From assembly GCA_044892525.1 (NCBI GenBank), contig CM097885.1:72602001-72666000 (forward strand): DNA of 64,000 nt, given 5' to 3'. The stretch comes from Schmidtea polychroa (taxonomy: Eukaryota). The position numbers and the translations under genes are program-made. How positions within the stretch are numbered: position 1 is the stretch's first letter; every line of letters starts with the position of its first letter. The notes under the pieces are model-generated. The model worked only from the letters and a program-made list of their open reading frames with translations, was not told where the DNA came from and ran no database searches. This document shows, in pieces, positions 44,419 to 45,180 of the stretch.

Positions 44419-45180
44419 ATGAATACCGCTACCAGCTCTGGAAAAAATCTTCGCCCGTGTCTCTCCTGCGCCGATAAAAACGCAGATATCGCGCAGCTCC
44501 ACTTATACATAGGGGCACTGAAAAAGAGAATTGATCTCTACGAAGGCACGTGGTTCTCCCCGCCACAAATGAAAGAGGAACGCAAGAAAATCCTCCGATT
44601 AGAGCATTGCAGGGACAGCCTGCTGGAGGAAAGCCGTTGCCAGCGGCTCACGATTAAAGCCCAATCGGAAGCCCTCCATAAAGTATATACGGAGGCAGAA
44701 TTGGCCAAACGGGTCCGAGAATTTCCCGTCATCGAGAAAACCAATGTCTTCCCACCTCACCATCAGGCCTCCCAATCAACTTCAACAAGCTGCCAAGGGC
44801 ATGGTACCTATCTGCCACCCGTCCCGGCTCCAACCTTATCGAGTTATCTACCCTTGGTCGGTGGACCTACCGACCCCATCCTGGCTCCAATCTTGGTAGC
44901 ACCAATCGGCACCGCGAACATAGAAAACCCTCCGTCTACTCGCAAACGGAAACGGCCAACTCGAGCCGAGAAGAATAAAAAACGCCGAGATGCGATGGCC
45001 GCACTCGAAGCGTCACTATCGGTAGCCCAATCCACCATAAAGGAAATCTCTTCCAGCCATTCAATTCCAACGAAGGAAATTTTCCGTGTAATTCCCGCAG
45101 AGGGCATCAAATACGTCTCTAACCAACGATTGCCGGTCGACATCGACGAGATGCTTGCGGATGGGGAGTCCTTTGACTGA
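44419..45180 (+). CDS. LTR E-borne CxxC/coiled-coil/basic/DEMLAD protein, 253 aa
   Basis: Intact ORF; PCLSCADKN, EGTWFSPPQMKE, RKRKRPTRAEKNKKRR, VDIDEMLADGE. Confidence 0.75.
   Translation: MNTATSSGKNLRPCLSCADKNADIAQLHLYIGALKKRIDLYEGTWFSPPQMKEERKKILRLEHCRDSLLEESRCQRLTIKAQSEALHKVYTEAELAKRVREFPVIEKTNVFPPHHQASQSTSTSCQGHGTYLPPVPAPTLSSYLPLVGGPTDPILAPILVAPIGTANIENPPSTRKRKRPTRAEKNKKRRDAMAALEASLSVAQSTIKEISSSHSIPTKEIFRVIPAEGIKYVSNQRLPVDIDEMLADGESFD

Follow-up and report, generated by a model that had tools for sequence, protein, structure and literature searches.

A candidate regulatory gene family under strong selection inside the long terminal repeats of Burro-like giant Gypsy elements

Why would a long terminal repeat (LTR) carry an intact open reading frame (ORF) far inside it, and what might the encoded protein do? 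The ORF in question (44419..45180, 253 aa) lies in the window, that is, the whole stretch of 64,000 nucleotides analysed here, and it reads, like the other features mapped below, on the + strand. It occupies positions 2915-3676 of a 4,200-bp LTR (41505..45704), in agreement with the preliminary description of this DNA, which had proposed an LTR-encoded protein family. The LTR is bounded by TG...CA with a 4-bp target duplication and is the 5' LTR of a giant Gypsy element. Mapping of the LTR end places a primer-binding site, which we take to be of the tRNA-Pro type, at 45713..45730. A RING ORF (46166..46645), preceded by an acceptor-like TAG, comes after the LTR, followed by Gag (CCHC), a mononegavirus-type fusion protein, protease, RT/RNase H, integrase and ankyrin, which are spread over several frames here (48902..62778). 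By Pfam, the fusion protein between Gag and pol is of the Monjiviricetes type, and RING and MATH ORFs are also present in the element.

A length of ~25-30 kb, multi-kb LTRs with TG..CA ends, a target duplication, a primer-binding site and a mononegavirus-like env between gag and pol are all Burro-type features, as is the cargo of ankyrin, RING and MATH domains. Judged by this architecture, which also makes a planarian the probable host, the element matches the Burro type known from planarians, as described in the accessible parts of PMC6431247, where Burro/GYPSM1 likewise has a 26-31 kb period, 4-5 kb LTRs, the order Gag, fusion glycoprotein, pol, and ubiquitin-like, ankyrin, RING and MATH/TRAF cargo. 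The element here differs from Burro/GYPSM1 in that MATH/TRAF is a separate downstream ORF and that BIR was not detected; moreover, the same parts of that account contain no LTR-internal ORF, intron or promoter. We found no literature description of an ORF in Burro LTRs, and the accessible text of PMC8532177, PMC11410931, PMC13238120 and PMC7264820 does not mention one; the original Burro account, Repbase GYPSM1 and Fig. 2A of PMC6431247 may mark it. Further copies of the LTR lie at +26,393 bp and +52,786 bp, giving the order LTR-internal-LTR-internal-LTR when the neighbouring stretches are included. The three LTRs of this tandem (41505 to ~98490, L021-L024) are identical over 4,200 bp, and the array is either a very young tandem insertion or else an assembly duplication. 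The LTR in the window is also pieced together from several subfamilies: its U3 resembles L056, its promoter resembles L068/L069, and its ORF alternates.

Searches of the 781-Mb assembly returned at least 150 matches each for the window ORF (family A) and for its paralogue at 27610..28339 (family B), many of them paired ~26 kb apart. No internal stop was present in 141/150 (A) and 132/150 (B) of the best-scoring matches listed, a score-ranked sample that favours intact copies. The two window ORFs are 42% identical over residues 6-201 (E 3e-40) and have in common the four motifs by which the preliminary description had paired them. The family B paralogue lies within an LTR remnant (26829-28923), and the DLDELLADAE tail ascribed to it is indeed present but in another frame: a frameshift occurs near 28280, close to the 3' end, and its own frame stops at 28299 (229 aa). 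Intact relatives have 247-249 aa. Similarly, we confirmed the NVDQLLADAE tail at 36051-36080, but in an interrupted copy that retains the C-terminal half only (35735..36101, start approximate), namely the linker, basic patch and acidic tail. This copy represents a third, older family (C) with 106 matches, of which 15 of the best 25 contain stops; the N-terminal motifs are found in other family C copies, one of them an intact frame of 229 aa. Old family C is decaying.

The most distant member is the ORF near 19100, whose proposed kinship stands by way of intermediates and not by direct comparison. The direct match was weak (hhalign probability 2.8%, E 0.016; hmmsearch E 0.013), but intermediate sequences match both the family profile and the profile of this ORF, termed D2 (L098, E 3.5e-7 and 6e-14; L061, E 2.6e-6 and 9.5e-15). 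The D2 exon (19122..19603) lies within the LTR remnant 18276-19912, begins at an acceptor and has no ATG of its own. It has the layout helix-TW.P-helix plus basic helix. The CxxC and the acidic tail, both put forward earlier as family traits, are absent from D2. Family D has a fourth LTR type, of at least 5.1 kb and with a 30.8-kb period, which brings the LTR types known to carry relatives to at least four. The family D LTR contains a second ORF, D1 (18403..18774), which has 123 aa in other copies and an early stop in the window. D1 weakly resembles D2 (tblastn E 0.16) and ends in KKRGRPRKK, presumably an AT-hook-like motif; an AT-hook gave no Pfam match. All three paralogues in the window are broken or partial. 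They sit in 5'-truncated LTR remnants, mapped at 18276-19912 and 26829-28923 for two of them, and the first description of solo LTRs is not borne out for these copies.

The reading frame is under strong selection. We calculated pairwise Nei-Gojobori dN/dS for 8 copies of family A and 6 of family B, chosen across subfamilies, the pairs of which are not independent. Family A gave 0.10 overall, 0.017 in the core, 0.066 in the basic segment and 0.21 in the linker; the corresponding family B values were 0.11, 0.032, 0.067 and 0.23, and the C-terminal dN/dS was 0.08-0.18. A dN/dS near 1 would have spoken against the family; values as low as 0.017 in the core and 0.10 overall indicate strong purifying selection instead. 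Over a 93-codon core, the window copy differs from 7 relatives by 28-49 synonymous and only 1-7 non-synonymous changes. In two sets of near-identical copies (13 distinct ones out of 20 in one set, 25 out of 29 in the other), pN/pS was higher for private than for shared variants (0.20 vs 0.05, p 0.03; 0.36 vs 0.14, p 0.01), which indicates that selection acts during replication and not on inserted copies. That the private pN/pS is still below 1 is partly because the copies were picked by protein score. The excess of amino-acid changes among private variants, together with the decay of the old family, gives no support to reading the retention in solo LTRs, as proposed earlier, as a result of selection. 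Genuine solo LTRs do occur, namely 4/10 aligned family A relatives, each with a target duplication and an open ORF, and youth explains why their frames are open. Within an LTR type, ORF cores share 91-99% identity; between families A and B the figure drops to 58-60%, as against 94-95% for the Gag cores of A and B. This type-specific divergence, as read from the alignments, fits a target inherited with the LTR.

The surroundings of the ORF resemble those of a spliced gene. A core promoter (41997..42048) comprises a reverse CCAAT at 41997, a TATA at 42013 and an initiator-like sequence, with a likely start site near 42046. These elements and the following donor are conserved in 11/11 family A LTRs, ~500-560 nt into the LTR, and the same promoter order recurs ~330 nt into 3/3 family B LTRs. 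A short exon 1 extends to 42067 and is followed by intron 1 (42068-42117; 42046..42117 for the two together), the 3' end of which repeats exon 1. The repeat and its GT were found in 8/10 loci scanned, the two negative loci being those of family D. Exon 1 and its copy at the intron 1 3' end covary by subfamily; the copy fits an intron tail renewed from spliced RNA at strand transfer. Intron 2 spans 42282..42386, and an AATAAA, a candidate for the end of R, lies 72-81 nt past its donor in 11/11 LTRs of two families. Both LTRs of one natural element lack the intron 2 segment precisely, from GT to AG (119 nt). Intron 2 was kept in 68/72 pattern matches and absent in 3 (one and the same insertion, seen on a second contig too), the remaining match being unrelated. 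Together these results show that + strand RNA of the leader is spliced and packageable, and that the intron is normally retained.

The GT of a third donor, at 42621, is kept by 97 out of the first 100 matches in a list of 362. This donor opens a long predicted intron (42621..44418) that ends at an acceptor TAG (44416-44418) abutting the ATG; this junction is a prediction. The 1.8 kb 5' of the ATG is mostly 25-55% identical between subfamilies, with the exception of stem 2 (see below). Even so, a YAG occurs no more than 12 nt from the ATG in 70/71 distinct copies, compared with 79/353 in the background, and at position 0 or 1 in every family A row, compared with 6/353. Downstream, a poly(A)-like hexamer (45303..45308) lies 122 nt past the stop and is followed by a GU-rich stretch; one is found at +90 to +170 past the stop in 67/71 distinct copies. 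The RING, TRAF-like and D1 ORFs have acceptors similar to that of the LTR ORF. Because the promoter, donors, acceptor and poly(A) signal are conserved and an intron has been lost exactly, each LTR resembles a complete spliced gene. Copies without the long intron gave 0 matches against 61 for a control pattern in the one subfamily searched, and none lacked intron 3 among the first 100 listed of 362 matches. Contigs of presumed RNA runs cover parts of the ORF and include no splice joint, start or end; we counted them neither way. A shorter LTR (L134) was considered as a further case of intron loss and set aside, since its 791-nt deletion is not GT/AG and affects one LTR of the element only. An antisense ORF (42310-42666) was likewise rejected: its frames are not preserved among copies, and its conserved letters are accounted for by base pairing.

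This layout bears on where the ORF lies relative to U3, R and U5. A short R followed by a 3.3-kb U5 is probable, and a long R is a less favoured possibility; under either, the ORF likely lies downstream of the start site. A comparison with U3 genes such as Bel1, Nef or sag does not fit, as the ORF lies ~2.4 kb 3' of the likely start site, with the promoter and spliced leader 2.0-2.4 kb before the ATG. The position of an ORF downstream of the likely LTR start site, in a spliced-gene setting, is a new observation here.

Two covarying RNA stems flank donor 3. Stem 1 (42420..42608) pairs arms at 42420-42444 and 42584-42608, with 21 pairs and 9 double-sided changes among 8 copies. Stem-loop 2 (42704..42788), just inside the predicted long intron, has 30 pairs and 11 double-sided changes among 7 copies. 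A search of Rfam with the stem gave no match. The stems could be packaging signals for Gag: they occupy the usual location of Gag packaging and dimerisation signals, so an accessory partner would not be needed to account for them.

We next considered the protein itself. An AlphaFold2 model based on 17 sequences has a mean pLDDT of 60, with 74-88 for most of the helical parts. It begins with helices 16-41 and 48-101, joined by a TWFSP turn and preceded by a CxxC (C14/C17). The rest consists of a disordered linker, a basic helix (~174-213; 182-213 in the model) and an acidic-hydrophobic tail (241-251) with a short predicted helix (242-247). In families A, B and C alike, this tail closes a disordered region. 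The basic helix has 10 K/R within residues 176-200 and a dN/dS of 0.066. Because generic antiparallel hairpins can be superposed on residues 12-80 at 1.4-2 A, the coiled coil is predicted to be an intramolecular helical hairpin in the monomer model. The hairpin and basic helix, unlike the CxxC or the tail, are common to all four families. No relative was detected in Pfam, among 1.84 billion protein representatives (0 matches), in PDB sequences (E<0.1) or in BFVD, which upholds the description of the family as unrecognised; nor did the Pfam and protein searches disclose a host family outside LTRs. Protein homologue searches at near and shorter lengths, and searches of metagenome and viral contigs, likewise returned no relative, and Pfam, the 1.84 billion representatives and PDB sequences revealed no sequence kinship to Rev/Rex/Rec/CERV or Tat/Tax/Tas members. 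Foldseek against BFVD and PDB gave nothing at E<=0.001, VIA-align matched generic helical hairpins or bundles only (best Z 9.4), and the best ESM Atlas scores (0.80 and 0.84) are at lead level only. Animal transposon ORFs are scarce in the searched libraries, and these blanks therefore do not show restriction to a single species. Overall, the sequences describe a genuine accessory gene family, under strong selection, lacking detectable relatives and in an unusual place, to which a function can be ascribed only by inference.

A regulatory accessory role fits this anatomy. Rev, Rex, Rem and Rec are small products of spliced RNA that combine a helical hairpin with a basic helix, and their intron-retaining transcripts contain structured RNA. 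The same traits are predicted here, but there is no sequence or fold match, the export-signal spacing is unconserved and the gene is LTR-internal; in addition, the basic segment here is of mixed Lys/Arg composition and lies ~70 residues from the hairpin, which differs from Rev. MMTV sag, HIV nef and foamy tas/bet are located in U3 or extend into it, being read from the 3' LTR; foamy Tas combines a basic region with an acidic activation region at its C-terminus. The ORF described here is also an accessory ORF in an LTR, but it lies past the inferred start, in R or U5, and has an acceptor and a poly(A) signal of its own. In foamy virus, poly(A) in the 5' LTR is suppressed by U1 at an upstream donor, according to the accessible text of PMC3694450; a donor likewise lies upstream of the AATAAA near the LTR start here, where the AATAAA would serve the genomic 3' end. 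The nearest precedent is CERV of the C. elegans Gypsy element Cer1, the product of a spliced mRNA that is required for export of the genomic RNA (PMC10309623). As far as the accessible parts of that paper describe it, CERV is Gypsy-encoded, spliced and lineage-restricted and has a helical hairpin (helix-hairpin-helix) along with a Cys motif and a basic NLS, much as is predicted for the LTR ORF protein. It differs in having 517 aa with M and G domains, encoded by gag exons and a pol-3'LTR ORF, whereas the LTR ORF protein has ~250 aa, is entirely LTR-internal and matches nothing in any library. The roles of Rev and Tat are covered in the accessible part of PMC7264820.

We reasoned, by analogy, that a Rev/CERV-like regulator of intron-retaining RNA is the best explanation, although one held tentatively. 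Transcription would start near 42046, short leader exons would be spliced to the acceptor before the ATG, and the mRNA would end ~140 nt past the stop, so that it would begin and end within one LTR. The protein, made first from fully spliced RNA, would bind intron-retaining element RNA, keep it unspliced and have it exported from the nucleus, thereby shifting output towards full-length RNA. In this scheme, the N-terminal helical hairpin is predicted to oligomerise, the basic helix to bind RNA, with the two covarying stems flanking donor 3 as candidate targets, and the acidic tail to dock a host factor. Genomic RNA would have to retain introns 2 and 3 for rebuilding of the LTR, and the LTR ORF, the RING ORF and several others would need splicing. 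We ranked this role first because export of intron-retaining RNA is needed, the hairpin and basic helix are common to the families, the RNA is structured and CERV offers a precedent. Several observations count against it, however. By inspection, and judged by the class definitions of CRM1-type export signals, the spacing in the tail is not kept across families A and B, and the tail is closer in appearance to an acidic helix for activation or docking. A further point is that copies without the long intron did not turn up (0 vs 61 in control, one subfamily), and type-specific divergence would suit a promoter DNA target equally well.

A Tas/Bel1-, Tax- or Tat-like activator, whose basic helix would enter the nucleus and contact LTR promoter DNA or a DNA-bound host factor while the tail recruits co-activators in positive feedback on its own LTR type, is possible. 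It was kept as a close second in view of the acidic tail, the absence of a clear export signal and, in family D, an AT-hook-like partner; a role at the RNA level is no less likely than transactivation. The tail and its predicted helix 242-247 are conserved in families A, B and C (C-terminal dN/dS 0.08-0.18), U3 is very A-rich, the family D LTR encodes the AT-hook-like protein, and the divergence is specific to LTR type. D2, however, has no tail. Basic regions of bZIP proteins have a characteristic Asn/Arg spacing, which by inspection the basic helix lacks, and family B has no zipper. TAR sits at the RNA 5' end, whereas the stems here begin ~375 nt past the start site.

The remaining readings carry less weight. 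That the protein is an anti-silencing or host-modulating factor, binding chromatin or a component of the piRNA pathway and shielding the element as the RING, TRAF-like and ankyrin cargo might, is unlikely: the core is near-invariant within a type, pairwise rates show no sign of an arms race, and divergence tracks the LTR type and not a common host target. In its favour, the element encodes other host-interfering domains, and Burro elements are piRNA targets that are derepressed by smedwi-2 knock-down, as reported in the accessible part of PMC8532177. We consider slightly more improbable still a particle or reverse-transcription cofactor, a basic oligomeric chaperone aiding a long first DNA product (~3.6 kb from primer site to start). 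With a start near 42046, the first minus-strand product would indeed cover most of the LTR, and a basic helix plus hairpin would suit such a role, but Gag already has CCHC knuckles, and regulators are the proteins more typically expressed from a spliced RNA of their own and fitted with an acidic docking tail. Least probable by far is a non-functional frame kept open through recent copying or RNA-level constraint. The protein is known here from its sequence alone and best-scoring lists favour intact copies; against this, the core substitution counts (28-49 synonymous vs 1-7 non-synonymous) already largely refute it, the acceptor and poly(A) signal are conserved, and homologues occur in four LTR types.

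A bolder form of the Rev/CERV-like reading, which we regard as doubtful, would make these LTRs self-contained spliced regulatory genes. In each, U3 and R would be short, and a U5 of 3.3 kb would hold both response hairpins and the gene for their own binder, which would form a new protein family. If so, any LTR, solo ones included, could act in trans as the source of a type-specific Rev-like switch, and LTR types that differ in their switch-target pairs would share a nearly identical Gag. Accessory regulators are familiar in complex retroviruses, and CERV is the only demonstrated Gypsy case in the accessible parts of the literature cited. What that same literature does not describe is a strongly selected gene that has introns and a poly(A) signal of its own and lies past the start site inside an LTR. 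Such a position would imply a first reverse-transcription product of ~3.6 kb and would explain the long LTRs of Burro. With hundreds of open copies in what is probably a model regenerating animal, in which, by the accessible accounts, Burro is under piRNA control, the switch would be directly testable.

Two further features of the element were observed. The 3' end of the LTR contains a highly conserved block (84-94% identity at 45500-45599 in family A, within 45400-45620) that is also discernible in families B and C (28660-28760 and 36330-36400), and is probably a structured RNA adjoining the primer site. Finally, the gag frame (48300-48901; L056:7425 onward) is coding-like for more than 100 codons 5' of its first ATG, with a conserved acceptor at ~48322; gag may start from an upstream exon or a non-AUG codon.
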